Assembly: GCA_035549675.1 (NCBI GenBank)
Contig: DASZQL010000159.1
Span: forward strand, 1 to 34,357
Direction: 5' to 3'
Length of the DNA: 34,357 nt
Source: Phycisphaerales bacterium
Lineage (GTDB): Bacteria > Planctomycetota > Phycisphaerae > Phycisphaerales > UBA1924
Positions 936 to 18,883 of this stretch are shown piece after piece. How positions within the stretch are numbered: the stretch's first letter is position 1; every line of letters starts with the position of its first letter. The notes beneath the pieces are model-generated. The model was not told the DNA's origin, did no database searches, and worked only from the letters and a program-made list of their open reading frames with translations. The position numbers were made by a program, and so were the translations under genes.

Positions 936-3900
936 ATGAATTTCCAGACGGTCACGCGAAACCGCAGGAGCTGGAGCCAGCTGCTAATCGCCGGTCTCGC
1001 GGCACTGACGGCCTCGCACGCTCAGGCCCAACTCGTCGTGCCAATCGGGCACGATTTTGATGGCGACGATGTCGACGACCGCGTGGTCGGCTACCCCGCC
1101 GTTGGTTCGGAAGTTGCAACGGCCGGCCTCGTCCGCGTCTACGACGGCTTGACGCTCGAGCCCCGGCTCAACCTCCGAAGCGGCGAACCAGACGATGCCT
1201 TCGGTTTGTGCGTCGCCTCTGCCGGCGACCTTGACGGCGACGGTGCAAACGACATCATCGTCGGTGCTCCGCTGCACAGTCGGATCCACCTCTACGGCGG
1301 CGCGGTTTACATCTTTTCCGGCGCGACGGGCCAGCGGCTGGAACGAATCGAAGGCAATCCTTCGCAGATGATCGGCCGCGCCGTCGCCGGTGTGGGCGAT
1401 TTCACAGGAACGGGCGTGCCGTGCTACGCCATGTCCGGCAGTCAAGTCCTTCCGGACGGCTCACGCCGCGGCTTCGTTCAGATCCGAGTTCTGGGAACAC
1501 CCGAGCCGCGTGTCGTTTTCGAAGCCGACGAGTCAAACGATCTGTTCGGCGCATCGCTAGTGGGACTCGGTGATATCAACGCCGATGAGAAAGCGGACAT
1601 CGCCATCGCCGCTGAGTTAGCCACCAACTCGGGCGCGACCAGCGGCGGCATCTACATTTTCCACGGACTGGATTGCGTCTCAGGCTGTCCCGAAATCGTG
1701 CACACCGTCGACGCGGCGGCGTATTACGCCGCCGAGACCGACATGGACATCACCGCGTACGGCTGCTTCCTGCTCAATGGAACCGATGTGGATGAGGACG
1801 GCAAGCGTGAACTCCTCGTGGTGTCGCGAGGCATCGATTCCGAAGATCGCGCGGACTTCGTCCTCGACTCGATCTCTCTGGACGACGGACAGATCGTCGC
1901 GCAGGAGCGCTCGCTGTTTCTGATCGCCGACGGCGACGTGAACAAGGATGGAACTGTTGCGCCGAGCGACGCCTTCCTGGTCATCCAGAACATCAGCAGT
2001 AGTGAGTCCGTTCTCGATTGGTTCCACACCGATGTGAATAGCGACGGCACCGTGGATCTTGATGACGTTTACCGGGTCATCACAAGCTTCGACGAGGACT
2101 CGCCGCTGGTCGTCCGCGCGGGTTCAGCCGCCGCGGCAGGGGCGGTTGCCGCCGGCACATATCCCCCCGGAGGACTTCCGACATGTGTTGGATGGATTTG
2201 GATTGGGATACTTCCCAACCCGAATGAACCACAGAATCCAGAGGACGACTTTGTCATTCCAGAGTGTTGCATTCCGCAAGACAACACTTGGGAGACCCTC
2301 GACGATCTGCTGGGCGGGTGCGGCACACCCAGGGACCCCATCGAGCCGGAGCCGGATGACGGCATTGTCGATCCCGGGCCGCCGAATCAGGGCGGACCGA
2401 TCATGTCGGGCCCGAATCCAGACCCGGATTGTCCCACTCCCCCATGCCCGTGCCATTGTGTGCGATCGTGGCGGGGCAACTGCATTATCGTCGAGTGTGA
2501 CCACATCATCAGCTATCCCGGTAACCCACCCACTATTCGTCCCAAAGATCCAAGAACCCCAAGTCCGAACCCGCGCGGGCCGAGAGGGAACGAGTCTCGG
2601 GCGGACACCACCAATGATTCAAACGACTCCGTTTCCAACCCCGAGTTGGACCGTCACGGACCCGGTGAGTCCACTTGCAATCCGGTCCTTCTCTCCGACG
2701 GCATCAAAACCGAGCAAGATGAAGACTTGCGCGTCGCGCTTCCGGGCCGCGACTTTGTTCTGAAGCGCACGTACAGCGCCGGGTCCACGCAGGACGATCC
2801 GCGGTTCCCGAGCATGATCGGCCGCGGCTGGGGCACTTCCGCCGACGGGTGGGTTACCTTCGTCCCGACTCGAATGGATTGGGTCAGCATTGAGGCCGAC
2901 GAGTCCAACGCATTTGTTGACGCCTTGGAGGTTGTCGCGTTCCCGGTCGAAGGGAGCACGAAGCTGTTCGTAAGCGAAGACGACCCGAACCGCTTCGACA
3001 CGCTCGCCCCGAGCCTGACTCACGGTTGGCGAGCCGCTGCCCGCGTGCGCGGCGTTCTAGTTCCGGTCTGGCTCATCGAGACTTCCGGTCACGGACAGAC
3101 GGTGTACTACCGCACGTCCGCGCGTGAAAACGGAGAGGGCACACTCTCCGAAGAACTCCAATCGCTCGACGGTCGAATCCTGCAGGAACGCGACGAGTTC
3201 GGCAACGCGTTCACCTATCAGTACATGTCGCTCACCGATTCCGACGGCCACGCGGCGAGGCCGCGCCTCAAACGCCTGTTCCTCGGCGGCGAAACCGAAT
3301 CGACCTGCAAGGCCAAGATCGAGTTTGTGTGGGATCTCGGCACCGAGTCAGCCCCGGGTTCCGGGCGGCTGACCGAAGCCAAGGTGCTACGCCCACAGGG
3401 CAGTTCGTGGGTCACCATGCAGTCGGCACGCTACACCTACGTCGGAGACCTTGATTTCGGCGATCGAAGCGCGGTCGGGAACAATGTCAATCAACTCGCC
3501 GCGGTCCGCCAGCGCGTCCGGCTCGACGCCGGCGACGCGCCGGGAGAAGGGTCGTGGTACGCACGCGGATACCACTATCGGTACCACCACTCGATGAGCC
3601 ACGGACCCGCTCTGCTCACGCACGTCTTTGAGCCTGAGTCCATCGAGTATTTCGCCGAACATTGGGCCGCCATCTCCGCGGACTCGCAAGACGAATCCAT
3701 CGCGATGGCGATCAACAAGCTCATCGAGCATCACAATCTCAGCGAGGCCGTTGGCGGATCCGGAAGCCCCACGGTCAGCGAGCTCGCGAGCAAGGAGATC
3801 CAGTACTACTCGAGCGGCGATTCCGCGCCCGGCTACGACGAGGGCAGCCTCGAGGGCCTCGTCAGATCCGAAATTCTGCACCGTGGTTGTTCGTGTTCCG

Positions 3901-6900
3901 GCGGTCAATCTTCGAAGACAGAGTTCGAGTACGCGCAGCGAGCAATCCAGGACGTTGAGCGGGTGCACGAGTCGGCGGGCGGCACAGTGACGATGCACCC
4001 CATCAGAATGTCCAAACTGACAATCCGCCGTGATTCCGTGTGGCGCGATGGTCAATGGCAGGAGCACCAGATCGTTCGAAACTGGTCCGAGGATCGGCTC
4101 TTCGGCCTCGGCTGGGGCACCTTCGGCATCCCTGCCACCTTCGACCATCCCTTCTCAGTCACCGTCCACATCCTGCGGTGGGTGCCGGTTCCCTTTGTAG
4201 TCGCGAACGAGGTTGAAGATCCCGCCACCGATCGCGTGTGGCGGACGTACTTTGAGTTTGAGAACCATAATCCCGTTCGCAAGTTCAATGCGTCGGCGAT
4301 CGCATCGTTTGAGACGACCTCTGCCGGATTGCTCAACTACGCTGACACCAACGATGATCCTGGCGCAACCGCAGACCCGAAGGAGGCGGTGAACTTCAAC
4401 GAGGGCGGCGTGCTGGAACTCAGCCAGTTCGACGACTTCGGCCAGAAAACCGCCGAAGCTGTCGCGCGAATCAGCTCTATAGGGGAACCGCAAGACGAGA
4501 TCCTGCTCCGCGAACTGGAGTATCTGTCTGACAACGAGGGGGACCGCCCGGATCTGCTAATCAGAACGACCGAGTTCCGAACCGACGAGGTAAGTGGCCC
4601 ACGCGAAGTTCGCGAATACCAGTACCAGTTCGACCACACGTCCGGAATGCGCCGAAGCCAGGTCGCCCAATCGGCCTGCATTGAGCAGCGCGAGACGCAA
4701 CAGCAACATGGCCCGCCCGGATCGGGCGAGGTCGTCCGCGCGAGTGGCTTTACCGGCGCGGGCGATACCGCATGGACGAGGTCGGGTGATGGCTCGTTCA
4801 CCGTGATGACCTACGACACGCTCACGGGGGCGATGACCAGCACCGTGAGAAATGCTCCCATCACCGACGCGCTCCCGTCGCCGAGCTTTGGGATTGCCGC
4901 GTCCGGAGACCGGTCCGCCGATGGCGGACAACTGCTCACCGTGCGCGAAGTCGATCTTGCCGGCAGGCCCCGCAGCGTCACCGATGAAAGCGGCAATGAA
5001 ACGATCTTTGATTACATAACCGAACCGGTCTTCACGTACGCCACGCTGGGACAGGTTGCATCGACTCCGACCCTAACCGCAAGCAACCAGCACTACCTGC
5101 GCGTCACATCGACCCCGCCGACCGGTGTCGGCCCTGTGTCCAGGCAGTGGGCCAACGCCGGGTACCAAGTTCTCCGATCGAGCAGCTACGTTCCGGGGAG
5201 CGGCCTCGAGATCGGCAGAGTGATCTATCAGTACGACAGCCGAGGCCAGCACCGCGAAACACGGACGTGGCACGACATCGCCGGTGATCTGTCCAACCTC
5301 GAGCAGTACGAGTACGACGGCCTGGGCCGCCTGATCCGCACGATCTCCGCAACGGGCCATGTGGCCGAGACCGACTACGACAGCTTTGACCGCGTCATCG
5401 AAACGCGGCAGGGATCGGCCGTCGGCAGCATGCAACTGGTCGAACGCAACTTCTATGACCATACCGGAACGCTTGCATCACCGCACCAAGGCGTCGGAGA
5501 CGGACTTCTCACACTGACACAGCGGTTCGCAAGCGGCAGTGACATCCGCTCGACGGTCTCGATTTACGACTGGCGCGGCCGGAAGCGCCTCAGCTATCTG
5601 GCGGGCTCATCCGCCATCACCCCCGCGAAGGGTGCCTATGTCGCCGAGGTTCTTGACAACCTGGGACGACCGGTCGAACAAGCCACCGTCAGCGGCGAAC
5701 AAAGTCTTTCATCGCTTATTGGTTCCCTGCAAGACGATGAGCTCACGTCCTTTACCGAATTCCTCGCAACCCCGAATCACCCAGTGGAGCGCGTTCGCGC
5801 GCTGTCCTACGGACCCCGCGGCCTCGTCTTCGAGGACACCGATTCGTTCCGTAACGATGGCGGCGTGCTTTCACGCACAACACGGCATTGGCTCGACGAT
5901 GAAGGTCGCGAGCTTGTAGCAGTCGGTCCGGATGGCCCGGTCGTCAAGAAACAGTACGACGGCCTCGGTCGCGTCACGACGACCATCACCACCGACGGCG
6001 CCGCGGCAAGATCCACCTCCAGCCCGTCCTTCGCCGCCGTCACCGCGATGGAGCCCACGACCGAGGTCACCTTCGAGCGCACCAGTTCTCTGTTCGATGG
6101 CCGCGGCCTGCCGGTGCTCGACCGCGTGGAACAGCGACGCCACGATCTGACCGATTCGACCAAAGGCATCGGCGGGTCGCCGGTCAAGCAACTCGCCGCG
6201 ACCGTATACGACGGCGTCGCCAAGCCGATCGCGACTGTCCGTTATGGGAGCGGACTGCAATCCGGATCCGCATCGGATTCCTATGCATCCGGAGGCGGAA
6301 CCGACGCGGTGCCCCTGACCGCCGTACCCACCCGGGGCCCCGGCCGGATCATTACCGAAACACACTACGACGACGCCGGGCGCGCCACTGAGTCCGTGGA
6401 TCCCCGCGGCATAGTCAGTCGGATGATCTACGACGACGCCGGCCGGGCTGTCGCCACGATCGACAATGTTTCAGATCAGTCCGGCGGCGACCCCGTGAGC
6501 GTGACCCGCGACTCGGACGGTTTGTGGAGCGTCGTCAATCGTCCGACAAGCGAGCATCCGGAGCAAGATGATCGGAATCGCGTTGTCTCGATGGTCTATG
6601 ACGGCGATGGGAACATCACCCACCGTATCGCGCACAAGCCGGCAACAAGCGGCGATGAGCGGCAGGTCACCGAATATGTCTATCAATGCCCCGGCACAAC
6701 GAGTCTGGAGGGGGGGGGCGGCAGCGTGACGAACGGAGCGCTGTCCAACAAACTCCTTTACGAAGTCCGCTATCCCAACCCGGGAACCGGCCTGCCGAGC
6801 ATCACACCCGAGGATACCGTCCGCTACGCCTACAACCGTCTCGGCGAGAGGCTCGGCGCCTTGGATCAGAACGGGACGCTGATCAGGTACCAGCTCGACG

Positions 6901-9900
6901 AAGCGGGTCGGATTCTTTCAGAAACGGCGACGTGTTCATCACCGAGCATCGATGCCGAGTCGAACAGAATTGCGACCGCGTACGACAGGCTCGGCCGCGC
7001 TTCGACCATGTCCATGACCGACGATGGCATGAGCATCCACAGCCAGATGGCGATCGACTACGACGGTCTCGGTCGCATCACGCGCGTCCGGCAAAGCCCG
7101 TTCGGGTCCATCACTCATGTCGCGACCACAGCGGTGGATTATCAGTACGACGGAACGACCTCCGCCGGACAGTTGGTACACGATCGTCTCATTGAAATGG
7201 CTTACCCCGCGTGGTCGCCCGAATCGTACAGACCTGTCCAGACCATCGCCTATGGGAGCGAGGCATCTTCGTCCGATCGCATCTCGCGCATCACCGGCTT
7301 CTCATGGACCCGTGGCGGAGCTGTGGGCTCGACGGACATCATCGGCTCGGCTTCTCACGAATACCTCGGCCTCGCGCGGCGCGTGGTCTCAAAGTTCCAA
7401 AAAGCGACCGGTGGCATGCTGGTTCGAGACCGGTGGGTGGATGCGGACACCGGAGCCCACACCAGCGGCAGTTACGAGGGTCTCGACCAGTTCGGACGCG
7501 TTCGGCGCCAACTCTGGACGCTCGGTGAACCGATCAATCCCTCGGCCTCGGGTTCAAGGCCGCCGCTTGTCCGGCTCGACTACGCCTACGACGATGGCGG
7601 AAACACCCTGTCGCGACTGACCCGTCGCGCGGGTTCAAGCGGCGCCGCCACCCCTCTGCGCGATGAACTCAATACCTTCGACGGCCTGAATCGCTTGACG
7701 GAGAGCCATCGGGGCGAGGTAAGTCAGATCGGTCGTGGCAGTGAGCAGTGGGTGCTGGACCAACTCGGCAACTGGACAACGTGCAGGCGCGCCACACTTG
7801 TCGCGGGCGGTTCGTACAACCGTGTCGAAGGTCGCGAGTTCAACGCGACCAACGAGATCAAGAACACAGAAATCACGGGCACCGATGCGCCGTCGCAACG
7901 GCTGTTCGAGTACGACCACGCCGGCAACCTGGTCGGCCAACGGATCCTCGACGCGCTGGACGACGAGGGCGAGTTCGCCGCGCAGCGCTGGAAGCGGTTC
8001 ACGTACGACCCGTGGAACCGGCTGGTGAAGGTCGAGATCGAGCGGCGGGCCGGCGCCCTGGTCGAGGGGCCGCGGAAGACGGTCGCGGCGTACACCTATT
8101 ACGCCGGCAACCAGCGCGCGACAAAGACCTGGCGTGCGAACCGGTCCGCCGATTCGCTCTTCTTCTCGGATGATGATGACGGCGAATCGGACCCGCCCGG
8201 ATACGTCGATACTCCTGATCGCCGCTCGACCTATATCTATGATCGTGACTGGCACTTATTAGAAGAGCGAACCGAGGGGTACAACGCCGGGCAGCGGGGC
8301 GAGAACAGTCTCGCCTCGCCGTACGCCGGCCCGTGGGGTTGGGGACCCGGCGGCTCCTTCGCGGCTGCGCCGGACGAAGAAGCACTCCGCGTCAACCGCT
8401 ATCTCTGGGACCCCACGCAGTGGGATGAGTTCGTCCAGTTCCGATCGTTGCACGCGGAATCGTCGGGAAGCAGCCAGACAGTGGTTGAAGACGAGCGCCG
8501 CTGGGCGCTGACGGACCGCAACCACACCGTCATCGGTCTGGTCGACGACGCCGCGGTGACGGCCAGCGCGAGCTCGATCGTCCCTGAACAACTGCAGCGC
8601 AACCGCTACTCCCCCTACGGCCGCGCCGAGCGCGAGTGGGCCGCGGACGTCGACGGCGACGGCCGGATCAATATCACCGACCTGAACAAGATCGCCGACG
8701 CCACCGACATGACCCTCGCCGCGGATGGTTCCAGCGGCGAGTACATCCCGGGCGCCGACGTGGACTCCGACGGCACCATCGGCACGACGGACCTCTTCCA
8801 CGCCACCACGGTCCTGGCGCTGGGCACCGACCCCTTCGACCTCGACGACCCCCTCCACACGGATCCGATTGGCCCCGGCGGTGTACATGCTGTGGAGGAC
8901 GGCTCGCTCTGGCGCTCCTACTGCACCATTGGCTACAGCGGAAGCCTCTACGACCAGCACGCGCGCCTCTGGCTCATGCGCTCACGCTGGTACGACCCCG
9001 AGCTCGGCACTTGGCTCACGCGCGATCCGGCCGGCTATGTGGATGGCATGTGCCTCTACCGCTATGTGCGCGGGAATCCGTGCTTATACTTCGATCCATT
9101 TGGGCTGTTCTCATTTGGCGAGTATTGGTCTGACATCAAAGCCGGCGCGGCGGAGCTCGTTGCTCGCATTCCGAATGCGCTGACAGGTGCGGCAACGGGA
9201 GCCGCCACGGGCGCGGCTACGGGGGCAGCCGTTGGTGCAGGGGTAGGACTTGTCGCCGGTGCTGGCGTCGGCGCGGCACCCGGTGCAGTCGCGGGTGCCG
9301 CCGCTGGAGCGACCGGTGGAGCAATCGGCGGGTTCATCAGCGGGCTTATGGCCGATTCGAGCACGCCGGTCACCGAGGTGATGAAACAGGCTGCTATTGA
9401 CGGTGTTGCCGCAGGCATTACGGGAGGCGTTAGCGGCCCATTGCTCGGTGGGACAAGCGGAACTGCGGCTGCGATGACCACCACCGGAACCGTCGTCCCG
9501 GTTGCGGCGAGCACAGTTCAAGCCTCGGCACAAGCTGCTGCCGCGACCGCCGCAGCAGCCGGTATTATGGCCGCAAAGACGCAGGGACCAGCAACAAGCC
9601 AGACTACCCCAAGCACAACAGGAGAAGGAGCGAAGGGCGGTACGTACACGATGGTTGATCCCGAAACTGGCAATGTCGTTCGATCAGGGCGGACGAATGA
9701 TTTATCGCGACGGCAAAAAGAACTGGGACGCGACCCCAATACCAAACATTTGGAATTTAGAGAAGACATGAGAACAGACAATTACAACACACAGCGAGGT
9801 CGAGAGCAAAAACTACACGATTATTATAACCCACCTCTAAATAAGATTAATCCAATTAGCCCTATGAATCCCAACCGACAAAAATACATGGATGCAGCCC

Positions 9901-9920
9901 CCGATGTGTGCCCACGTTAA
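936..9920 (+). CDS. Giant secreted RHS/YD-repeat polymorphic toxin (signal peptide, FG-GAP repeats, dockerin-like pairs, YD shell, C-terminal nuclease-like toxin)
   Basis: Uninterrupted 8985-nt ORF with SD-like gagaggga 8 nt upstream. Sec-type signal MNFQTVTRNRRSWSQLLIAGLAALTASHAQA. Many YD repeats (YDGLGR, YDDAGRA, YDRLGRA, YDSFDRV, YDWRGR). Shell entry motif NPVLLSDGIKTEQDEDL. Canonical RHS core end RSRWYDPELGTWLTRDPAGYVDGMCLYRYVRGNPCLYFDPFGL. Confidence 0.95.
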   Translation: MNFQTVTRNRRSWSQLLIAGLAALTASHAQAQLVVPIGHDFDGDDVDDRVVGYPAVGSEVATAGLVRVYDGLTLEPRLNLRSGEPDDAFGLCVASAGDLDGDGANDIIVGAPLHSRIHLYGGAVYIFSGATGQRLERIEGNPSQMIGRAVAGVGDFTGTGVPCYAMSGSQVLPDGSRRGFVQIRVLGTPEPRVVFEADESNDLFGASLVGLGDINADEKADIAIAAELATNSGATSGGIYIFHGLDCVSGCPEIVHTVDAAAYYAAETDMDITAYGCFLLNGTDVDEDGKRELLVVSRGIDSEDRADFVLDSISLDDGQIVAQERSLFLIADGDVNKDGTVAPSDAFLVIQNISSSESVLDWFHTDVNSDGTVDLDDVYRVITSFDEDSPLVVRAGSAAAAGAVAAGTYPPGGLPTCVGWIWIGILPNPNEPQNPEDDFVIPECCIPQDNTWETLDDLLGGCGTPRDPIEPEPDDGIVDPGPPNQGGPIMSGPNPDPDCPTPPCPCHCVRSWRGNCIIVECDHIISYPGNPPTIRPKDPRTPSPNPRGPRGNESRADTTNDSNDSVSNPELDRHGPGESTCNPVLLSDGIKTEQDEDLRVALPGRDFVLKRTYSAGSTQDDPRFPSMIGRGWGTSADGWVTFVPTRMDWVSIEADESNAFVDALEVVAFPVEGSTKLFVSEDDPNRFDTLAPSLTHGWRAAARVRGVLVPVWLIETSGHGQTVYYRTSARENGEGTLSEELQSLDGRILQERDEFGNAFTYQYMSLTDSDGHAARPRLKRLFLGGETESTCKAKIEFVWDLGTESAPGSGRLTEAKVLRPQGSSWVTMQSARYTYVGDLDFGDRSAVGNNVNQLAAVRQRVRLDAGDAPGEGSWYARGYHYRYHHSMSHGPALLTHVFEPESIEYFAEHWAAISADSQDESIAMAINKLIEHHNLSEAVGGSGSPTVSELASKEIQYYSSGDSAPGYDEGSLEGLVRSEILHRGCSCSGGQSSKTEFEYAQRAIQDVERVHESAGGTVTMHPIRMSKLTIRRDSVWRDGQWQEHQIVRNWSEDRLFGLGWGTFGIPATFDHPFSVTVHILRWVPVPFVVANEVEDPATDRVWRTYFEFENHNPVRKFNASAIASFETTSAGLLNYADTNDDPGATADPKEAVNFNEGGVLELSQFDDFGQKTAEAVARISSIGEPQDEILLRELEYLSDNEGDRPDLLIRTTEFRTDEVSGPREVREYQYQFDHTSGMRRSQVAQSACIEQRETQQQHGPPGSGEVVRASGFTGAGDTAWTRSGDGSFTVMTYDTLTGAMTSTVRNAPITDALPSPSFGIAASGDRSADGGQLLTVREVDLAGRPRSVTDESGNETIFDYITEPVFTYATLGQVASTPTLTASNQHYLRVTSTPPTGVGPVSRQWANAGYQVLRSSSYVPGSGLEIGRVIYQYDSRGQHRETRTWHDIAGDLSNLEQYEYDGLGRLIRTISATGHVAETDYDSFDRVIETRQGSAVGSMQLVERNFYDHTGTLASPHQGVGDGLLTLTQRFASGSDIRSTVSIYDWRGRKRLSYLAGSSAITPAKGAYVAEVLDNLGRPVEQATVSGEQSLSSLIGSLQDDELTSFTEFLATPNHPVERVRALSYGPRGLVFEDTDSFRNDGGVLSRTTRHWLDDEGRELVAVGPDGPVVKKQYDGLGRVTTTITTDGAAARSTSSPSFAAVTAMEPTTEVTFERTSSLFDGRGLPVLDRVEQRRHDLTDSTKGIGGSPVKQLAATVYDGVAKPIATVRYGSGLQSGSASDSYASGGGTDAVPLTAVPTRGPGRIITETHYDDAGRATESVDPRGIVSRMIYDDAGRAVATIDNVSDQSGGDPVSVTRDSDGLWSVVNRPTSEHPEQDDRNRVVSMVYDGDGNITHRIAHKPATSGDERQVTEYVYQCPGTTSLEGGGGSVTNGALSNKLLYEVRYPNPGTGLPSITPEDTVRYAYNRLGERLGALDQNGTLIRYQLDEAGRILSETATCSSPSIDAESNRIATAYDRLGRASTMSMTDDGMSIHSQMAIDYDGLGRITRVRQSPFGSITHVATTAVDYQYDGTTSAGQLVHDRLIEMAYPAWSPESYRPVQTIAYGSEASSSDRISRITGFSWTRGGAVGSTDIIGSASHEYLGLARRVVSKFQKATGGMLVRDRWVDADTGAHTSGSYEGLDQFGRVRRQLWTLGEPINPSASGSRPPLVRLDYAYDDGGNTLSRLTRRAGSSGAATPLRDELNTFDGLNRLTESHRGEVSQIGRGSEQWVLDQLGNWTTCRRATLVAGGSYNRVEGREFNATNEIKNTEITGTDAPSQRLFEYDHAGNLVGQRILDALDDEGEFAAQRWKRFTYDPWNRLVKVEIERRAGALVEGPRKTVAAYTYYAGNQRATKTWRANRSADSLFFSDDDDGESDPPGYVDTPDRRSTYIYDRDWHLLEERTEGYNAGQRGENSLASPYAGPWGWGPGGSFAAAPDEEALRVNRYLWDPTQWDEFVQFRSLHAESSGSSQTVVEDERRWALTDRNHTVIGLVDDAAVTASASSIVPEQLQRNRYSPYGRAEREWAADVDGDGRINITDLNKIADATDMTLAADGSSGEYIPGADVDSDGTIGTTDLFHATTVLALGTDPFDLDDPLHTDPIGPGGVHAVEDGSLWRSYCTIGYSGSLYDQHARLWLMRSRWYDPELGTWLTRDPAGYVDGMCLYRYVRGNPCLYFDPFGLFSFGEYWSDIKAGAAELVARIPNALTGAATGAATGAATGAAVGAGVGLVAGAGVGAAPGAVAGAAAGATGGAIGGFISGLMADSSTPVTEVMKQAAIDGVAAGITGGVSGPLLGGTSGTAAAMTTTGTVVPVAASTVQASAQAAAATAAAAGIMAAKTQGPATSQTTPSTTGEGAKGGTYTMVDPETGNVVRSGRTNDLSRRQKELGRDPNTKHLEFREDMRTDNYNTQRGREQKLHDYYNPPLNKINPISPMNPNRQKYMDAAPDVCPR
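1047..1835 (+). other. FG-GAP / integrin-alpha-like beta-propeller repeat region of the RHS protein
   Basis: Repeated Ca-binding-like DxDxDG motifs followed by hydrophobic strands: FDGDDVDDRVVGYP, AGDLDGDGANDIIVGAP...GGAVYIFSG, GVGDFTGTGVPCYAMSG, LGDINADEKADIAIAAE...GGIYIFHG, GTDVDEDGKRELLVVSRG. Confidence 0.7.
1926..2090 (+). other. Dockerin/EF-hand-like repeat pair 1
   Basis: DGDVNKDGTVAPSDAFLVIQNI ... TDVNSDGTVDLDDVYRVITSF. These are two DxNxDGxV Ca-loop plus helix units, as in type I dockerins. Confidence 0.6.
8646..8825 (+). other. Dockerin/EF-hand-like repeat pair 2, inserted inside the C-terminal RHS core region
   Basis: DVDGDGRINITDLNKIADAT ... GADVDSDGTIGTTDLFHATTVLALG. It lies between the YSPYGRAE motif and the GYSGSLYD...RWYDP...DPFGL core terminus. 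Confidence 0.6.
8931..9107 (+). other. RHS-associated core terminus with predicted autoproteolysis motif (DPFGL)
   Basis: GYSGSLYDQHARLWLMRSRWYDPELGTWLTRDPAGYVDGMCLYRYVRGNPCLYFDPFGL matches the GY.G...D...GL...R.R.YDP..GRF...DP.G......LY.Y...NP....DP.GL consensus. The Leu codon ends at 9107. Confidence 0.85.
9177..9575 (+). other. Gly/Ala-rich glycine-zipper-like segment of the toxin C-terminal region
   Basis: TGAATGAATGAATGAAVGAGVGLVAGAGVGAAPGAVAGAAAGATGGAIGGFISGLM ... GGVSGPLLGGTSGTAAAM ... AAATAAAAGIMAA. GxxxG/AxxxA periodicity. GC-rich like the host genome. Confidence 0.5.
9636..9917 (+). other. Putative GIY-YIG (URI-fold) nuclease toxin domain
   Basis: GGTYTMVDPETGNVVRSGRTNDLSRRQKELG ... 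RGREQKLHDYYNPPLNKINP. GTY-x11-RSG fits GIY-x(9-11)-YIG with the second Tyr replaced. G.T..L..R supplies the conserved Arg. E..L....Y.P.LN supplies the catalytic Glu and Asn. The DNA here is visibly AT-richer than the rest of the gene. Confidence 0.6.
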
Positions 9921-10395
9921 TAAGTTAGACACAGCTGGATTGGCACCGGAGGGATCGGTCGTCACTGTGCCACTACGAGATCGTGGGTATGGCGTTGGCG
10001 TGATTGCGAGAAATAGCGGCGACGGAATTTTATTAGTTTATTTCTTCGGCATTCGGCTCGACGCCAACGACCTACCAATTGATTGGTCGACGATCAAACC
10101 TAGCGCCGCAATTTGGGTTCGACTTGTCGGAGATTTGGGCTTGCTGAATAACGCTTGGAATGTAATTGGCACAGTAAATCCATGGAGTCGTCTCGAATGG
10201 CCCATGCCTCCACTAGCAAGGTATGTTGATGGCATTGGATATTATAAATCATTTTATGATGATAATACTCTCGATAAAATTCGGGAAGTTCGTATTACTG
10301 AGACAGAAGCAAAGCAATTTTGGGAAGACGGCATGAGCGGTTATGTGGCGGCCGAAATAGCGCTGACCAAGCGACTCAGCAGACTAGCTCCATAA
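9892..10395 (+). CDS. Putative cognate immunity protein for the RHS C-terminal toxin
   Basis: 167-aa ORF (alternative ATG at 9904). It overlaps the RHS stop codon (9918-9920) and shares the reduced GC of the toxin tip. Lying immediately 3' of a polymorphic toxin is the canonical immunity position. I recognise no family. Confidence 0.6.
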   Translation: MQPPMCAHVNKLDTAGLAPEGSVVTVPLRDRGYGVGVIARNSGDGILLVYFFGIRLDANDLPIDWSTIKPSAAIWVRLVGDLGLLNNAWNVIGTVNPWSRLEWPMPPLARYVDGIGYYKSFYDDNTLDKIREVRITETEAKQFWEDGMSGYVAAEIALTKRLSRLAP

Positions 10396-10473
10396 ACAAG
10401 TAATCTCCTTCGTCCTTTATCTTGCTAAGGGCATTGGCATGTGGGATAGAAGCCCTCCATACCGTAGCTGGTT

Positions 10474-10643
10474 GCATCGAAGTTTTCCATGCCGTGCCAT
10501 CGAAGTCGATCGGAACCTTCGACGATTGGGCAAAGCCGATGGCGAAGAAACACCCTGTGCGCGGACCGACGTTGACGGCGCGGTTCACACTCGATGAGAG
10601 AACGGTAGACATCGAAGTCGGCGGAACCGACTTCGATGGCACG
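10474..10643. repeat. REP-like palindromic repeat cluster A (degenerate hairpin 10493-10530 plus perfect hairpin 10610-10638)
   Basis: CATCGAAGTCGG-CGGAA-CCGACTTCGATG has a 12-bp perfect stem. It abuts the RAYT stop codon (10644-10646). An upstream 27-nt block CCGACGTTGACGGCGCGGTTCAC(A/C)CTCGA is also present in cluster C with one variable position. Confidence 0.85.
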
Positions 10644-11202
10644 TCACACGAATCCCTTCCACTTGTCCCACGAACCCGGCTTTCCCGGCGGCGGGTCGCA
10701 CTCCAGCTCGCTTTCGCGGCGTCCCATCCACCAGCGAACGCTCGACCACTTCCAGTCTTCGGGCCGCTCCACCAGGCCACGTTCGACGGGGTTGCGGTGG
10801 ATGTACCGGACCTCGCGGCAGAACTCGCTCAGGTCGCGGACGTTGCGGTCGAAGCCGCCGCCCTTCTGCCAGAAACGAGGGCGGCCGGTCGCGTCCTTCA
10901 GCCGGTTCAAGATCGGCGAACTGTCTCGGCACCACCGCCCGAGCGCGCGCTGGGTGATCGACATCTTGATCGACCAGAGCACACGCTTCATCGTCACCCG
11001 TTCATCGGGCCGGCAGAGCAGGTGCACATGCTCGGGCATGATGACCCAGGCAAAGAATCTCGAGGTTGAACTTGCGGCGAGCGTGTGCGAACCGGGCTAC
11101 GAGCGCATCGGCGATCCGCGGGTTGGTGGTGAGGAGGGGCAGTCGCTTCTGACAGGAGAAGGTGATGAACCGAACGCCGCCCGGGATCTCGTACCGGCGC
11201 AT
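10644..11202 (-). pseudogene. REP-associated tyrosine transposase (RAYT, IS200-like Y1/HUH transposase) with a 1-nt frameshift
   Basis: C-terminal frame: MPEHVHLL (HUH motif) ... YIHRNPVERGLVERPEDWKWSS (catalytic Tyr motif). N-terminal part, in another frame: MRRYEIPGGVRFITFSCQKRLPLL...ARRKFNLEI. The two frames join at about 11052-11057. Removing one T from CTTTG restores FNLEILAWVIMPEHVHLL. The span is 559 nt = 3n+1. Flanked by REP hairpins on both sides. Confidence 0.8.
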
Positions 11203-11334
11203 GCGTTTCCGAATGGGCTCCCCGGGGGTCACGCGGGTACGATATCGGTCGGGCGATGGATAGGAGACGTGTCGAACGGGCGTGCCATGGACAACCACCT
11301 CGGGACTTGGACGGGTGCGACTGAGGACGAAGAA

Positions 11335-11410
11335 CATCGAAGTCGCCGAGCCGACTTCGATGGCACGATTGACACCGTGACCGCCGAGGAACATCGATGC
11401 CACCCGCCCG
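11335..11410. repeat. REP-like repeat B (hairpin 11335-11362 plus conserved right flank)
   Basis: CATCGAAGTCG-CCGAGC-CGACTTCGATG followed by GCACGATTGACACCGTGACCGCCGAGGAACATCGATGCCACCCGCCCG. That flank is nearly identical to 12545-12592 (3 mismatches by eye). Confidence 0.8.
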
Positions 11411-11449
11411 TACGACTCTGTATGGAATGTGATACCGGCGGCTGCACAC

Positions 11450-11471
11450 CCGCCGAGTTTCAACTCGGCGG
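11450..11471. repeat. Perfect 10-bp inverted repeat upstream of the RAYT pseudogene
   Basis: CCGCCGAGTT-TC-AACTCGGCGG. No T-run follows on either strand, so it is not an obvious intrinsic terminator. Confidence 0.5.
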
Positions 11472-11606
11472 CATTCAGATAGATACTGCGTTCAGGTTCG
11501 GTCTAGCCTGGGGTATCGTAGAATATAGATGTCGTTCACGTTATATGCCTCTTAGTGATTCAATAACTATCACCGAGTGATTGATTAATGATTGCCTGAT
11601 GACAAC

Positions 11607-11900
11607 ATGAACAATACGAACGAGCTGTTTTTTGCCGACGCATTCGGCGCCGAACGAGATTTCTTCCAGGCCAAGTGGCACGGGAAAACTGTGCATATGG
11701 AACCCACGCGACGGGGCTCGCCGTTCGTTTGGATTGCTGTCGTGGTGCTGCCGTGGCTCCTCGCAGAGGGCGTTCTTTGGGTTCTTCGATATGTGACGGT
11801 GCACCACCCTGCTCAGGCTGGGGGAATTAACTACGGCATGATGGCACCTGTCCTGCGAGTATCTGCGGCCTGCTTAATGGCATTTTGTCTTTATCTCTAA
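11607..11900 (+). CDS. Small predicted two-TM membrane protein (orphan cassette 2)
   Basis: ATG at 11607 (the track ORF starts at TTG 11592). Two hydrophobic helices: SPFVWIAVVVLPWLLAEGVLWVL and MMAPVLRVSAACLMAFCLYL. AT-rich upstream region. No family recognised. Confidence 0.45.
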   Translation: MNNTNELFFADAFGAERDFFQAKWHGKTVHMEPTRRGSPFVWIAVVVLPWLLAEGVLWVLRYVTVHHPAQAGGINYGMMAPVLRVSAACLMAFCLYL

Positions 11901-11915
11901 TGGCTGCAAACATCT

Positions 11916-12314
11916 GTGTGGCGGCGAAAAGAGCCCGTTGTCATCGCAGCACCGTCGATAGGCCAGTTCAGGCATATTCCTTCAGGCCAGTCCTGGGCTA
12001 TTGCCGACATCGCGAAGTTCATATTCACGAGCGGCTGGGTTCGCGATCCAAGCCGGGGTGAACGAACCCACTATGCGCTGCAACAATGGACGATTGTTTT
12101 TCGTACACCCAGCCACGAATCGCAACTGAGCGTCCTGCTCACCGAAATTGGATTGGGGATACGATTTCGTCGCGGCGTAAAAAAGATCGCACGCGCCTGT
12201 AACATCCAGATCGAATACCGACGTGTGCCCTTGAAGGATTCTCCCGACCGTGCCGAATGTAAGCTTTTATTCGGTGACACTCTCGACATGGCGCGAACGT
12301 GGGGCCATCGCTAG
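11916..12314 (+). CDS. Hypothetical protein (orphan cassette 2)
   Basis: 132-aa ORF with a GTG start 15 nt after the preceding stop. Reduced GC relative to the genome. No family recognised. Confidence 0.4.
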   Translation: MWRRKEPVVIAAPSIGQFRHIPSGQSWAIADIAKFIFTSGWVRDPSRGERTHYALQQWTIVFRTPSHESQLSVLLTEIGLGIRFRRGVKKIARACNIQIEYRRVPLKDSPDRAECKLLFGDTLDMARTWGHR

Positions 12315-12337
12315 CCTAGTAGCCACCTCGGCCGATG

Positions 12338-12592
12338 GTATCGAAGTCCTCCATTTCGTTCCATCACAGTCCGGCGGGTGGCATCGCATTCCGGCATCGT
12401 GCCATCGAGTTCCGCTGGGGACTTCGATGGTTGGGCGGAGCCGAGGGCAAAGAAGCATTGAGTGCGCGGGGCCGACGTTGACGGCGCGGTTCACCCTCGA
12501 CGGGAACGAGGGAGACATCGAAGTCGGCGGAACCGACTTCGATGGCACGATTGACACCGTGATCGCCGAGGAGCACCGATGCCACCCGCCCG
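12338..12592. repeat. REP-like palindromic repeat cluster C (degenerate hairpin 12398-12435, perfect hairpin 12516-12544, right flank to 12592)
   Basis: The 29-nt hairpin CATCGAAGTCGGCGGAACCGACTTCGATG is identical to copy A. It shares the left block with A and the right flank with B. It fills the intergenic gap between 12314 and 12614. Confidence 0.85.
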
Positions 12593-12613
12593 AAGGTTGC
12601 AAGGGGAACTAGT

Positions 12614-13057
12614 ATGAACGACGCATGGTCGTGGAAGCTTTCCGATCAGGGGTATTCCGTTCGAATCGACTGCGACAGCCGAGTGTCCTATGCGTACTTA
12701 CTAAAAGGCACAGCATTTGTTGGTGACGTGTGGCTAACCAACACAGATTATGATCCGGACGAGATCCCTTGGGATACAAGCCATCAGGAGATGCCGTTTC
12801 GCAATCCTAAAGAATACACTATCTCTCACGAACCATTGATTGATCCAAATCCAGATGACTTTGTATTTTATTCTTGGCATGACAAAGGTTCCTTACGTGT
12901 GGCCATTTTGTACCTCGGACAACCGCTCGCCATTTTGGGCGACGGCATCAAGCCTGGTTGGTGTGTGTTTGCAAAAAAACGAGGGCCATTGGCTCAGCCA
13001 CTTCTTATCGATGTTCGGCGCAATAACCAAGACAGACCGCCCGACACAACGAGCTAA
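12614..13057 (+). CDS. Hypothetical cytoplasmic protein, candidate orphan immunity protein (cassette 3)
   Basis: ATG preceded by aagggga (SD) at good spacing. Clearly AT-richer codons than the genome. 147 aa, Trp/Asp-rich, no TM segment. No family recognised. Confidence 0.65.
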   Translation: MNDAWSWKLSDQGYSVRIDCDSRVSYAYLLKGTAFVGDVWLTNTDYDPDEIPWDTSHQEMPFRNPKEYTISHEPLIDPNPDDFVFYSWHDKGSLRVAILYLGQPLAILGDGIKPGWCVFAKKRGPLAQPLLIDVRRNNQDRPPDTTS

Positions 13058-13115
13058 CGGCGGCACGTTCTTGACCGAGAACTGTCTAAGACGTGCCAGC
13101 AGACGACTGGTCCAG

Positions 13116-13230
13116 GGCCCGGCTCGTGGGCCGGAAGGGATTCGTGTGACGTGCCCGAGCGGACCTCGATGGCACGATGTGTGCAGGGAACGCTCGACCA
13201 CTTCCAGTCTTCGGGCCGCTCCACCAGGCC
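13116..13230. mobile_element. Scrambled RAYT/REP relic
   Basis: 13116-13149 resembles the reverse complement of the RAYT 3' end (GGAAGGGATTCGTGTGA, i.e. ...KGFV-stop on the + strand). 13150-13176 is a degenerate REP hairpin (CGTGCC CGAG ... CTCG AT GGCACG). 13188-13230 is an exact 43-nt copy of RAYT-internal 10736-10778 (codes GLVERPEDWKWSSV on the minus strand). Confidence 0.75.
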
Positions 13231-13332
13231 GCGCGTTGACTCTGACCGCCTCATCGGAACACCCGGCCTTCTTTCCATGCCATGATGGGAGTTTCCGTTT
13301 CGTTCGAACTCTGGCTGTACCGATGAAGTGAG

Positions 13333-14227
13333 GTGCCAGAGGAACCCACAGTGAGCTCCGCAACGGCCCGACACACCGAAGTCGTCATCCTCGACCGCCT
13401 CTGCGGCACGTGCATGATGCAACTCCGCGGGGAGCCGTGCGACGGCGTGTGCCCGGGGTGCGGCGAGCGTGTGGCCGCGGCGCTTGATGGGGCTCACTTT
13501 GTCATGCGGTCGCCGTGGTACCTCGCGCGGCTGATCCGCGGCGGACGATTCATCTTCTGGGGAAACCTCGCGGCGATCGTGGGCGGGATCGCGTTTCTGT
13601 TCGCCGCCTCGGCGGTGCAGACGGTGTGGATCGCGCTCGTGTTCGGCGCGTTCATCCTGGTAATGGAACTGCTCGTGCACTCGGGGTGGTGGATGATCAC
13701 ACTCGCCGACCCTGATGCACTGCGCGACCCGCACCGTGCTTTCGGCGGCGTCATTCGCGCCACGGTCATAATGAGCCTGCTCTTTCTCCTGGGAGGAACG
13801 GCGCTCTTGGCGTTCGCCCCCCCCAGTGCTGCCCCCGCCTCCTGGCGGCAAGGCGCCGCCGAACCCTTATTTTCTGGTCAGCGCTTTGCTCATCGTTGGT
13901 TACCTCGCTGTCTGCTTTGTGCGCGCGATCCTGGCGAGGTCGTACTGCCACTGGATCATCCTGGCGTCTAGAGCACAGCGGAACGAGCCAATCCGTGACT
14001 ACCGCTTCCCGTTGTATCGCATCTTCCTCGCCTTCATCCTGCCCTGGCACCTCGTGATCGAGCCGGTGCTGCTGGTCGCGTCGGTCGTCGAGACCACGAA
14101 CAAGCTCAAGAGCTGCCTGAAGCTTCGACCGAGCATCGCGGGGACGGCGCGCCCGAAGCGGCGCGACGACGGTCTCGCGCAGGTGTTCTACGCCGACTCG
14201 CACGCGCCGGACTGGCCCGGCGGCTGA
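13333..14227 (+). pseudogene. Zinc-ribbon (CxxC...CxxC) multi-TM membrane protein, reading frame broken at a C8 homopolymer
   Basis: Frame 1 (GTG 13333) gives DRLCGTCMMQLRGEPCDGVCPGCG plus TM helices. GC3-rich coding signal switches to frame 2 just after CCCCCCCC (13817-13824). C7 would give ...ALLAFAPPVLPPPPGGKAPPNPYFLVSALLIVGYLAVCF... through to the stop at 14227. The span is 895 nt = 3n+1. Confidence 0.6.
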
Positions 14228-14251: not shown

Positions 14252-14336
14252 TAGGCCCGGAGGGACTTGAACCCTCACTCCCCTTGCGGGAAAGGGGATT
14301 TTAAGTCCCCTGCGTCTGCCATTTCGCCACGGGCCT
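14252..14336 (-). tRNA. tRNA-Leu (anticodon UAA), class II with long variable arm
   Basis: Minus strand: AGGCCCG TG GCG AAATGGCAGA CGC A GGGGA CTTAAAA TCCCC T-TTCCCGCAAGGGGAGT GAGGG TTCAAGT CCCTC CGGGCCT A. It has a 7-bp acceptor stem, a GG in the D loop, a TTCAAGT T-loop and anticodon TAA. CCA is not encoded at the 3' end. Confidence 0.85.
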
Positions 14337-14377: not shown

Positions 14378-15151
14378 TCAACCGGCGCGGGCCTCGGTTT
14401 CGACTTCTTCCATGTACCGACCGGTCAGGCCCTCTTCGCGCAAGACTTCGGCGTGCGGCATGTGCGTCGCGCGCATCACGCCCTTCAAGTGCGGCTTCAC
14501 CATCTCGCGCATCCGCGCCTGCTGCTCGACGATCGGGAGCGTCGCGTCGATCACGGATAAGCCGAACTCCGGCACCATCGACTCGTACTCGTTCAGGATT
14601 CGGCCCTGGAAGAGCTCGAAGCTCTTGTATGGGTCTTCGCTGAGCCGCAGGTCCATGCCCGCCTCGTACCACTTGAGCTCGGGGCGGCCTGACAGAATCC
14701 GGTCGAGCGCTACGTCGAGCGGAACGCGGAAGTAGAACGCCGCGGTGGGCTTGGGGGCCATGCGGTAGATGCGTCGGACGTATTCGCGGTCCATGCCACG
14801 GGCGGAGTCGCGGGCGAAGGCGGTGTAGATGTAGCGGTCAGCGAGGACGACGGCGCCCGCGCGGAGCGGCGGGAGAATGGTCCGCTCGAGGCGGTCCGTG
14901 AAGTCCGCTGCGTGGATCAGCGAGAACGTGAGCGGGCTCAGGAGCCGCTCCACCTTGCCCTTGCGCGTGGTTTCACGCACCAGCGGCGAGCTGTTCCACT
15001 CGCTGAAGTAGCAGGCATAGCCCTGGGCGGTCAGCCACTTCGAGAGGAGGTCGAGCTGCGTGCTCTTGCCCGAGCCGTCGATCCCTTCGACGATGAAGAG
15101 TTTTCCGGGGAGCGAGCCGAGGTCGGCGTACTGGCTGAAATCCGAAGGCAT
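14378..15151 (-). CDS. Thymidylate-kinase-like P-loop kinase, paralogue A (intact Walker A)
   Basis: ATG at 15151 (the track ORF extends to 15187). Walker A VEGIDGSGKST. Tmk-like AADFTDRLE...LRAGAVVLADRYIYTAFARD. Differs from housekeeping Tmk (DRY..S..AYQ) and carries a ~45-aa C-terminal extension. Confidence 0.75.
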   Translation of the reverse strand: MPSDFSQYADLGSLPGKLFIVEGIDGSGKSTQLDLLSKWLTAQGYACYFSEWNSSPLVRETTRKGKVERLLSPLTFSLIHAADFTDRLERTILPPLRAGAVVLADRYIYTAFARDSARGMDREYVRRIYRMAPKPTAAFYFRVPLDVALDRILSGRPELKWYEAGMDLRLSEDPYKSFELFQGRILNEYESMVPEFGLSVIDATLPIVEQQARMREMVKPHLKGVMRATHMPHAEVLREEGLTGRYMEEVETEARAG

Positions 15152-15312
15152 GGCTGAACATCCTGCGAAAGAACGCCGCCGCCCCACTGGCGACGATCGT
15201 GCGAATCACACAGTATGCCCGAAGCCGGGCGCGATGGAACGGACGCCCGGTTCGTCTGAAATACCCGTCATCCGGCTGCCGCGGCGTCGCACCGACAAGA
15301 GAGCGGAACAGC

Positions 15313-17019: not shown

Positions 17020-18104
17020 GCACGAAGACCCTGCACGGCGCCGTGATACTCATGGGACGCCGCTGCACCGTCCACCACGACGACGGGCTCGATGCCCCCG
17101 GCGATGTCGCCCCGCCCGTTCGGACCGTCGCCCAGAAGCTTGGAAACCGCCGTCGAAAGCTCGGGCTCCGCGATGGTTCCCCACCAGCGGATGAACGATG
17201 TCCGGGCGGCGTCGCGTTCGGAACGGAATCGGACCGCGAGCGAGGCTAGCCCGTCGTGCAGCGTCGCGGCTCCGCCGGTTTCGCCCGAGGAAACGATCGG
17301 CGTCGGCAACGATTCGCTCGCCGCCCGGCGCCAGCTCTGCTCAAGCCAGTCCATCGCGTCGTGCATGTCGTTGATGACACCGAGCCGGTCCTGGATGCCG
17401 ACGATAAGCCCGTGCGCCCGCTCGACATCCGCTTCGTCGAAGCAGTCGCGGAAAATCTCGATCGCGTACCGGAGCCGCTTGCCCTCGATGCGCAACTCAT
17501 GCAGGTTGTCATAGACGCCCAGATCGGTGGCGCTGGTGGCCCGCATGGCGTTGAACAACCGCGGGATCTCGCGCTCGGCGACTTCGCCGGCGGTGGTGAT
17601 GTCGCCCGCTTCATCGACAGGCGCGTTGCGGAGCAAGCGTTTCCCGACGCGGGCCAGCTTCTTTCTCGCTTTGCCCCGGCACGCCTTCGCGATGCCCTCC
17701 AACGCGGTTTCACGCTCGCGCTCGAGCCCCTCGACCGCGTAGTCCAGCGCCGCGGCGTCGCCGCCTGCTAGCCCCCCGCGCCGCTCCTTGTACAGGTCCA
17801 TCAGCACGTCGCAGCGCCGCACATTCCCCGCGGCCCGGCGGATGCGCCGCAGACGGCGGTTCATCTTCTTCACGCGCCCGCGCCTGAGGCATCCCGCGAA
17901 AGCCGCGATCGCTGTTCCCGCCCGGCGGGTCGCCACGCGAACATGGTGAACGTCCCGGTCACTGGGGTTGTCGCCCGCGCGATCGAGCTGTTCCATCAGC
18001 TCGACGAGCGAATCCAGCCGGGAGCCGACGGCCTCGTGCAGGGCATCGCCGATGCTCATGACGGGCTCGATGGAGGGATTGTCCTTCTTCGGCTGCTGGC
18101 TCAC
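17016..18104 (-). CDS. CHAD (conserved histidine alpha-helical domain) protein, predicted polyphosphate-binding
   Basis: DVHHVRVATRRAGTAIAAF, LHELRIEGKRLRYAIEIF and LGVINDMHDAMDWL are typical CHAD helices. GTG 18104 overlaps the upstream stop (GTGA). Alternative ATG at 18059. The part of the track ORF upstream of 18104 overlaps the preceding gene and is Arg/Pro/Gly-rich. Confidence 0.8.
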   Translation of the reverse strand: MSQQPKKDNPSIEPVMSIGDALHEAVGSRLDSLVELMEQLDRAGDNPSDRDVHHVRVATRRAGTAIAAFAGCLRRGRVKKMNRRLRRIRRAAGNVRRCDVLMDLYKERRGGLAGGDAAALDYAVEGLERERETALEGIAKACRGKARKKLARVGKRLLRNAPVDEAGDITTAGEVAEREIPRLFNAMRATSATDLGVYDNLHELRIEGKRLRYAIEIFRDCFDEADVERAHGLIVGIQDRLGVINDMHDAMDWLEQSWRRAASESLPTPIVSSGETGGAATLHDGLASLAVRFRSERDAARTSFIRWWGTIAEPELSTAVSKLLGDGPNGRGDIAGGIEPVVVVDGAAASHEYHGAVQGLRA

Positions 18105-18883
18105 GGGCGCGCTCCCGTCATGTTTCCCACCACAGAAAGCACGCCATCCGATAGCGATTTGAACACGGTGCGAACATCGCCGTCGGCGTCCACCACCGAG
18201 AACTTGTACCGCTCGGAGAGGTCGTCGAAGACCGCGAGCAGCCGCGTCTGGTAGCGGACGAACGACTGGTAGACGTCGTGCTCCTCCTGGAAGTCCATCC
18301 CGGACTCCCAGTAGTCGAACCCACCCGCGGCCATGACGCGCTGGGTGAGCTTGGGGAGGCTGATCTTGAGATAAAAGACCGCGTCGGGACGGGGCGCGAA
18401 GCGATAGACATCGCGGATCCACTCGGGGTCACCGCCGCGGACGATGGAGCGCGCCATCATGGAATAGACGTAACGATCGGCGAGCACGACGAAGCCGGCC
18501 CGGAGCGCCGGGATGATCTCGTTTTCAAGCCTGTCGGCGAAGTCAGTGGCGTAATAGAGGTCCATGGTGAGGCGGCCGAGGGTGTGGCCCTCCTTCGCCT
18601 GCCTGAGTCCCTCGCCGGCCAACTGGCTGCGGGTGAGGGCGGTGTGGGCGACGCCGAAGCCGCGCGTCTCGAGCCACTCGCGCAGGAGCGCAAGCTGGGT
18701 GGACCGGCCCGCGCCGTCGGTCCCCTCGACCGCGATCAGTCGGCCGGGCAGCGACGAGATGTCCGCCGCATCGCCGCCGTTGATCTGGATGTCGGCATCC
18801 GCGCCGCCGCGACGAAAACCCGCCTCGGAGCGGTAACCGCTCGAGTTCGAGTGCGCTTCGACCGCGGCCTTGAAACTGGGCAT
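18101..18883 (-). CDS. Thymidylate-kinase-like P-loop protein, paralogue B (Walker A Lys replaced by Arg)
   Basis: VEGTDGAGRST (Arg codon at 18704-18706) where paralogue A has GIDGSGKST. Otherwise colinear with A (ATDFADRLE, LRAGFVVLADRYVYSMMARS). ~45-aa N-terminal extension. Confidence 0.75.
   Translation of the reverse strand: MPSFKAAVEAHSNSSGYRSEAGFRRGGADADIQINGGDAADISSLPGRLIAVEGTDGAGRSTQLALLREWLETRGFGVAHTALTRSQLAGEGLRQAKEGHTLGRLTMDLYYATDFADRLENEIIPALRAGFVVLADRYVYSMMARSIVRGGDPEWIRDVYRFAPRPDAVFYLKISLPKLTQRVMAAGGFDYWESGMDFQEEHDVYQSFVRYQTRLLAVFDDLSERYKFSVVDADGDVRTVFKSLSDGVLSVVGNMTGARP

Follow-up and report, generated by a model that had tools for sequence, protein, structure and literature searches.

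The tail of an Rhs polymorphic toxin locus in a Phycisphaerales bacterium (NCBI GenBank assembly GCA_035549675.1, contig DASZQL010000159.1) carries a REP-associated tyrosine transposase (RAYT) gene, repetitive extragenic palindromic (REP) hairpins of a single family, and two low-GC gene cassettes downstream of the toxin and its immunity gene. We analyzed 34,357 nucleotides of this contig (the window), for which an earlier reading made from the sequence alone had proposed that REP/RAYT activity may shape or mobilise an array of immunity genes, or that REPs preferentially colonise cassette junctions. Our analysis favors a different account: a standard RAYT–REPIN unit (REPINs being inverted REP doublets that form long hairpins), an extra REPIN, and a scrambled RAYT/REP relic probably accumulated in a permissive, decaying Rhs tail, with no dedicated cassette system. 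Both parts of the locus are of known kinds: it is a REPIN–RAYT system together with an Rhs locus that has a cognate immunity gene. Every element along the array is present in the order that the sequence-only reading gave, with boundaries slightly corrected (Table 1).

Table 1. Features of the Rhs locus and its downstream array (window coordinates)
Feature	Position	Strand	Description
Rhs polymorphic toxin gene	936..9920	+	2994 aa; RHS repeats, FG-GAP, Dockerin, Rhs-associated core
Cognate immunity gene, Imm26 family	9892..10395	+	Pfam Imm26 5.3e-11; overlaps rhs 3' end/stop codon
REP-A unit	~10440..10643	+	REPIN-type doublet: "-" REP 10489-10523, "+" REP 10607-10649; abuts RAYT stop codon
RAYT (REP-associated tyrosine transposase)	10644..11202	-	NCBIfam NF047646; Pfam Y1_Tnp 4e-07; one 1-nt frameshift
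REP-B	11329..11410	+	Single "+" hairpin (11335-11362) and 45-nt tail common to REP-C; 5' side of RAYT
Cassette 2	11607..12314	+	Single low-GC gene, membrane protein, in-frame TAA at 11898-11900
REP-C unit	~12334..12593	+	Complete REPIN-like palindrome: "-" REP 12391-12432, "+" REP 12511-12553
Cassette 3	12614..13057	+	Intact orphan immunity gene, 147 aa, GC 0.50
RAYT/REP relic	13116..13233		Inverted RAYT 3' end, degenerate REP hairpin, direct RAYT copy

REP sequence was found in all four intergenic gaps between the Imm26 gene and the first host gene, and in none of the approximately eight other gaps of at least 40 nt in the window. The 29-mer CATCGAAGTCGGCGGAACCGACTTCGATG occurs in two exact copies (10610-10638 and 12516-12544; shuffled sequences give an expectation of 0), and a looser stem pattern added the variant hairpin of REP-B, for which the chance expectation is none. 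A profile hidden Markov model (HMM) trained on 181 copies from related genomes, with window matches kept at E < 0.01, detected six significant REP copies, all between 10.4 and 13.2 kb: three in the "+" orientation (10607-10649, 11329-11371, and 12511-12553), two in the "-" orientation (10489-10508 and 12391-12432), and one partial "+" copy (13157-13182). That each module boundary carries a REP of one family, as had been claimed, was therefore borne out at 4/4 junctions. The hairpins were also located as described, but the units around them, REP-A and REP-C, proved longer than first thought. No known RNA family was found at the REPs by Rfam, whose only match was a tRNA.

REP-A and REP-C each contain a "-+" doublet, the inverted arrangement that forms the long hairpins of REPINs. 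As single-stranded DNA, REP-C (outer inverted arms 12370-12386 and 12577-12593) folds into one long hairpin (-66.9 kcal/mol, z = -5.3) and is therefore a REPIN-type element. Its sequence corresponds to the left part and hairpin of REP-A (79% identity over 179 nt) joined to the tail of REP-B (92% over 78 nt), and REP-C may be a RAYT unit that collapsed between its two directly repeated hairpins. RAYT and one hairpin (10644-11368) are nested in a REPIN-like unit, straight after a GGCACG tail, and the nested segment itself ends in a hairpin and GGCACG. Judged from the sequence, this nesting would fit either the proposed derivation of REPINs from IS200-like element ends (PMC3116915) or an IS200-style insertion beside a REP. 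No conserved target or cleavage motif was seen at the outer ends of the REP units.

The hairpins of REP-A and REP-C share an identical run of ~37 nt, and an independent Logan contig (L127; 2 kb, run SRR12170509) terminates within the REP-A hairpin. Both observations might suggest that unrelated pieces were misassembled into the array through a common hairpin. We consider this extremely unlikely: the independent contig matches window positions 8592-10636 base for base (100% identity), the 8-21% divergence of the units outside the hairpin shows that they are not collapsed copies, and the distal RAYT fragments and nested unit structure would be hard to obtain by misjoining. The identity of this contig with the window also indicates that the same strain occurs in public run SRR12170509. 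Exact-protein look-ups with cassette 3, tmk, and PhoU gave no match, and a look-up by cluster gave a single close relative, for Imm26 alone, which is encoded on this contig.

The transposase belongs to the RAYT family. With its frameshift repaired, the protein scores 102.7 bits against the NCBIfam model REP_Tyr_transpos (NF047646; cutoff, 80) and 25.5 bits against the IS200 model NF033573, below that model's cutoff of 55. The frameshift, placed near 11045-11060 by the relatives P0016 and P0014, which align in two reading frames, could be real or could be a rare assembly error. A CTTT run lies near 11050; the HUH motif (HVHLL) and the tyrosine motif (RYIHRNP) are both kept. The gene has a cognate palindromic REP on each side (REP-A 3' and REP-B 5'), and the hairpins next to it (10610-10638 and 11335-11362) are direct repeats. 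A Y1 HUH gene bracketed by directly repeated, same-strand hairpins is an arrangement shared with IS200/IS605 elements. Unlike those elements, the protein here scores too low for the IS200 model but passes the RAYT cutoff, and there is no evidence of multiple identical element copies.

More than 1,146 RAYT homologues were found, the best of them 64-67% identical, with a typical length of 184 aa. Among the matches listed, the three closest relatives on long contigs (L124, L125, and L126) are surrounded by housekeeping genes in three different contexts, and no Rhs gene lies near any of the three. The RAYTs of L124 and L125 are flanked by the hairpin family of the window in the same layout; in L125, "-" copies lie 5' of RAYT and a "-+" doublet lies 3'. 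These matching layouts indicate that positions 10440-11410 constitute a standard RAYT unit and that its REPs are cognate to the resident RAYT, in agreement with the sequence-only reading.

REPIN–RAYT systems are reportedly the subject of Nunvar et al. 2010. Measured against the properties given by Bertels and Rainey 2011 (PMC3116915), the locus shares with these systems a Y1/HUH transposase of the REP_Tyr_transpos family, cognate palindromic REPs on both sides of it, inverted REP doublets that fold into long hairpins, and a repeat family that, in related genomes, is scattered and lies mostly outside genes. It differs in its Phycisphaerales lineage, in the frameshifted gene, in the placement of the unit in an Rhs immunity tail, in the second, destroyed RAYT fragment 2 kb away, and in REP-C, which equals the left flank of RAYT plus its right flank, as if RAYT lay inside a REPIN. 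The destroyed fragment belongs to the relic at the distal border, which consists of the RAYT 3' end in reverse complement (13117-13155), a degenerate, shortened REP hairpin (13148-13182), and a 50-nt direct copy (13184-13233; 96%) of the internal RAYT segment 10732-10781. The direct copy points to a second, destroyed RAYT copy or to a rearrangement, and the presence of RAYT fragments at this border indicates that RAYT/REP sequence was duplicated or rearranged within the region.

The toxin gene and its immediate partner have the organization of an Rhs locus: Rhs repeats, a core that closes with PxxxxDPxGL, a variable tip behind it, and an adjoining immunity gene. Significant matches were obtained to Pfam RHS_repeat (1.2e-19), as well as to FG-GAP and Dockerin, and to NCBIfam Rhs_assc_core (1.5e-16); DPFGL at 9093-9107 marks the end of the core, and the low-GC toxin tip begins at ~9500. 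Beyond the core, the C-terminal region (9108-9920) comprises a glycine-zipper stretch and then the low-GC tip of ~90 aa, which is paired with the Imm26 gene. The tip matched no family in Pfam or NCBIfam; judged by eye, it resembles GIY-YIG.

The two downstream cassettes have GC contents of 0.53 (cassette 2) and 0.50 (cassette 3), compared to 0.64 for the window. Cassette 3 has nine homologues, the nearest of which is 47% identical. In one case (P0008) the homologue and an Rhs-LHH toxin gene overlap at the 3' end of the latter, and in another (P0005) it comes third among the genes that follow an Rhs-Ntox8 toxin; this position behind Rhs toxins identifies cassette 3 as an orphan immunity gene. 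No REP was found at any of the nine. Cassette 2 is collinear across its stop codon with the 249-aa P0132, its one full-length homologue (33% identity over 203 aa, gap-free, E = 9e-35). An interpretation of cassette 2 as two genes was ruled out, since this gap-free alignment covers both halves; the second half alone gave no match in a word-based search. Cassette 2 matched nothing in Pfam or NCBIfam, and neither cassette had a significant match to a PADLOC defence system. Genes from toxin-linked immunity families are expected downstream in such arrays, and cassette 3 is one, whereas cassette 2 has no family assignment. The description of both cassettes as orphan immunity genes accordingly stands for cassette 3, while cassette 2 was not shown to be an immunity gene.

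Comparison with the orphan-module loci of Rhs and contact-dependent inhibition (CDI) systems (PMC3150448) reveals as common features a DPxGL-terminated core, a variable tip of low GC with which the cognate immunity gene overlaps, and further low-GC genes downstream, one of them of an immunity family. In contrast to those loci, the cassettes here retain no rhs C-terminal or toxin fragment: a tblastn search of 10396-13332 with the Rhs protein and with LHH and Ntox8 tips yielded matches at chance level (all E > 1). Disruption of orphan regions by mobile-element genes of the insertion sequence (IS) and transposon kinds was already noted by Poole et al. 2011 (PMC3150448); the intruder here is a RAYT with its REPs, not an ordinary insertion sequence.

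To place the repeat in its lineage, we used a hairpin-pattern scan of species-representative genomes, counting in eight-kb blocks; this census covers related genomes and relies on crude open reading frame (ORF) calls. The family was present in at least 117 blocks, nearly all from Phycisphaerales or Phycisphaeraceae metagenome-assembled genomes (MAGs), with 26 blocks in the MAG richest in them among the matches listed. None of these blocks overlaps the window. They hold 189 REP copies at 132 sites; there are 87 singlets as well as 38 doublets, and the "-+" form seen in the window accounts for 29 of the 38. Sixty-nine percent of the copies lie entirely outside ORF calls, compared to 26% of the DNA, and the mean GC of the REP flanks equals that of the locus. 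One 109-nt-period tandem array (L008 6415-6732) alternates two REP variants with different loops, three copies each. Among the matches listed, RAYT was present in one block only (L073), and Rhs-like sequence in two only (L014 and L115), which are paralogues of one genome. Together, these results indicate that the REP family is long established in the Phycisphaerales, a dispersed extragenic repeat found throughout the lineage that normally resides in ordinary intergenic DNA.

The two Rhs-like blocks, both from Phycisphaeraceae ACE_PLA8, carry small toxin genes with dockerin-like repeats and an Rhs-core tail (L014 1094-4282 and L115 5900-8000), which part ways after a DPxGL-type motif. They have in common a 790-nt segment, 93% identical, in which a REP is found together with the 5' portion of a small Rhs-tail toxin gene, and because this REP-bearing segment is shared we counted the pair as a single event. 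In L014, a second repeat family (37-nt tandem units of GGCGGGTGGCACCGAACGTTA...) brackets the module, as do identical copies of an IS-like element.

Fifteen blocks contain two separate REP sites, and 13/15 of these pairs bracket ordinary DNA of normal GC. In L073 the two sites bracket the RAYT relative itself. The remaining case, L061 (2499-3257; Phycisphaeraceae SRP287051_co1_63), has two same-orientation "-+" REPINs (79% mean column identity over a 200-nt alignment) around a 517-nt low-GC segment with a DUF7832 gene, which directly follows a transketolase-family gene. A special link between RAYT/REP systems and toxin arrays is not upheld by these data, given the at least 117 dispersed blocks with Rhs-like sequence in two paralogous ones, the housekeeping contexts of the closest RAYTs, and the ordinary DNA in 13/15 brackets. 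The pattern that the sequence-only reading had itself set against its proposal, a family scattered over intergenic regions with no enrichment at rhs loci, is largely what the related genomes contain. Colonisation of cassette junctions by REPs holds only trivially, as an instance of their presence in intergenic DNA at large.

One explanation for the co-location is that RAYT, or a working paralogue, moves REP-bounded immunity genes as single-stranded circles, as an HUH counterpart of integrons or of the rAID-1 system. In rAID-1 orphan-immunity arrays of Bacteroidales, a XerD-family tyrosine recombinase is encoded at the 5' end and the intergenic sequences are repetitive and integron-like (Ross et al., bioRxiv 10.1101/471110), which supplies a precedent with another enzyme. 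On either side of cassettes 2 and 3, the hairpins share a single orientation, like the left and right ends of IS200/IS605, the HUH and tyrosine motifs of RAYT are kept, and the low-GC DUF7832 gene between same-orientation REPINs in L061 would be a second example. We nevertheless judge this mobilisation very unlikely. The RAYT is frameshifted, its relatives are not beside immunity arrays, and the REP-bracketed genes of related genomes are overwhelmingly ordinary host genes. With its nearest homologue only 47% identical and no homologue associated with REPs, cassette 3 gives no sign of recent mobilisation, and the outer unit ends have no conserved target or cleavage motif.

rAID-1 is the closest described analogue of the cassette-shuffling idea, and the locus lacks its defining features. 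The two resemble each other in their co-directional immunity-type genes, skewed GC, repetitive intergenic spacers, and neighbouring gene for a DNA strand-transfer enzyme. Here, however, the sole enzyme for recombination, a Y1 HUH RAYT, is encoded on the opposite strand, with no XerD-like gene at the 5' end, and its three closest long-contig relatives occupy housekeeping contexts, whereas close homologues of the rAID-1 recombinase are restricted to the immunity-array context (bioRxiv 10.1101/471110). The repeats in the window are drawn from a genome-wide REP family, and there are two cassettes only, one of them dead. The earlier statement that no described link between RAYT/REP systems and polymorphic-toxin arrays was known held as far as RAYT is concerned, none of the 15 best-ranked of 32 papers mentioning both RAYT and Rhs appearing relevant, mostly at the level of title and abstract; it did not hold for the broader pattern of a recombinase with repetitive intergenic sequences in immunity arrays, which rAID-1 exemplifies (bioRxiv 10.1101/471110).

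A less demanding role for the repeats is as portable homology: RecA-type recombination between direct REP units of 200-260 nt, within the genome or with incoming DNA of relatives, would insert, delete, and reshuffle cassettes, the units taking the place of the rhs-core fragments of classical arrays. The REP units are repeated in direct orientation, matching exactly over stretches of 23-37 nt and at 79-92% overall, the cassettes hold no rhs or toxin fragment that could provide homology, REP-C looks like what would remain of a RAYT unit after recombination between its two direct hairpins, and the relic attests to rearrangement at a REP. In L014 and L115, moreover, a REP lies inside the conserved segment of two diverging toxin paralogues. 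As the general explanation of the array, this seems to us rather unlikely, although recombination through REPs may plausibly have made a minor contribution. None of the 117 blocks listed carried the spacer or tail motifs of the 260-nt unit, even with up to 4 mismatches allowed, and a unit-specific 21-mer had two matches in metagenome contigs, both at chance level; with the non-hairpin parts of the unit absent from both collections, no matching donor is known. The divergence between the REP units argues against recent exchange.

Alternatively, the REPs could be kept as 3' hairpins, acting as terminators or mRNA stabilisers of the co-directional immunity genes. The units begin 20-60 nt past the preceding + strand stop codon (10395 to 10440, 12314 to 12334, and 13057 to 13116), and the REP-B hairpin is terminator-like on the minus strand. 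A consensus scan of the + strand, however, found no T-tract terminator at REP-A or REP-C, a position just after a gene is the default for REPs, and cassette 2 is already a pseudogene. We therefore regard such a role as quite doubtful, clearly less likely than the homology role above.

The account that we favor is that a standard RAYT–REPIN unit, in which a REPIN doublet lies 3' of RAYT and a REP lies 5' of it, became lodged in a chromosomal Rhs toxin locus, in a tail that would be dispensable. Two of the four REP-bearing gaps are obligatory RAYT flanks. The two remaining gene junctions appear to have been filled by REP-C and the scrambled RAYT/REP relic, extra copies that would have arisen when the RAYT–REP unit was locally duplicated or rearranged, or when a REPIN inserted locally. 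REPs would meet the cassette boundaries because these are the only sizeable intergenic gaps nearby and because the region is under weak selection, as judged from the frameshifted RAYT, the nonsense codon of cassette 2, and the fragmentary relic. The array tolerates insertion, with two of its five genes broken and the relic scrambled. On this evidence the repeats probably have no dedicated role in cassette traffic.

Several observations weigh against this account. Local clustering is strong, with six REP copies within 2.7 kb and, by the same profile, zero in the other 31 kb of the window. In L124 and L125, the 10 kb on either side contain no REP other than those immediately flanking RAYT, which makes the extra REPIN and the relic of the window unusual. 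The "+" hairpins flanking the cassettes all point one way, like the end hairpins of IS200/IS605, and since the cassettes lack rhs-core or toxin fragments, displacement through rhs homology is no obvious route for their arrival. The REP flanks of relatives show a small low-GC excess (4.2%, compared to 0.7% in controls), and the REPIN–DUF7832–REPIN case in L061 is the sole low-GC gene bracketed among the 15 blocks. Finally, enrichment was judged from related genomes.

Upstream of rhs, after an mlaE-like gene (20-469), 466 nt (470-935) are non-coding, with a GC content of 0.52 and no REP inside. Between the array and a tRNA-Leu(taa) gene (14252-14336, - strand), which lies ~1 kb past the distal array end and could mark an island edge, sits an ORF pair of normal GC (13333-14227). 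It encodes a membrane protein with a zinc-ribbon-like motif, apparently split over two overlapping + strand frames (13333-13971 and 13826-14227); the split could be a frameshift or could reflect two genes, and the protein matched no family. Farther on, two thymidylate-kinase-family paralogues (14378-15187 and 18101-18883, both - strand) lie around ppx/gppA and CHAD-domain genes, beside phoU-pstBACS. These downstream genes (tmk, ppx, the CHAD protein gene, the second tmk, and phoU-pstBACS) are intact, chromosomal, and housekeeping in nature, and the intactness of tmk, ppx, and phoU-pstBACS indicates that the gene breaks in the array do not stem from general noise in the assembly. A noisy assembly with pervasive frameshifts was ruled out; a seeming split at 20635-22784 is pstB and pstA.

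Whether RAYT/REPIN systems benefit their hosts is a long-standing open question. Were the co-location with immunity genes functional, these systems would gain a concrete role in the capture of such genes; the evidence gathered here points away from it. The locus documents a REPIN–RAYT family in the Phycisphaerales and provides a clear case of a free REPIN that equals the joined flanks of its RAYT, which fits the proposed origin of REPINs (PMC3116915).

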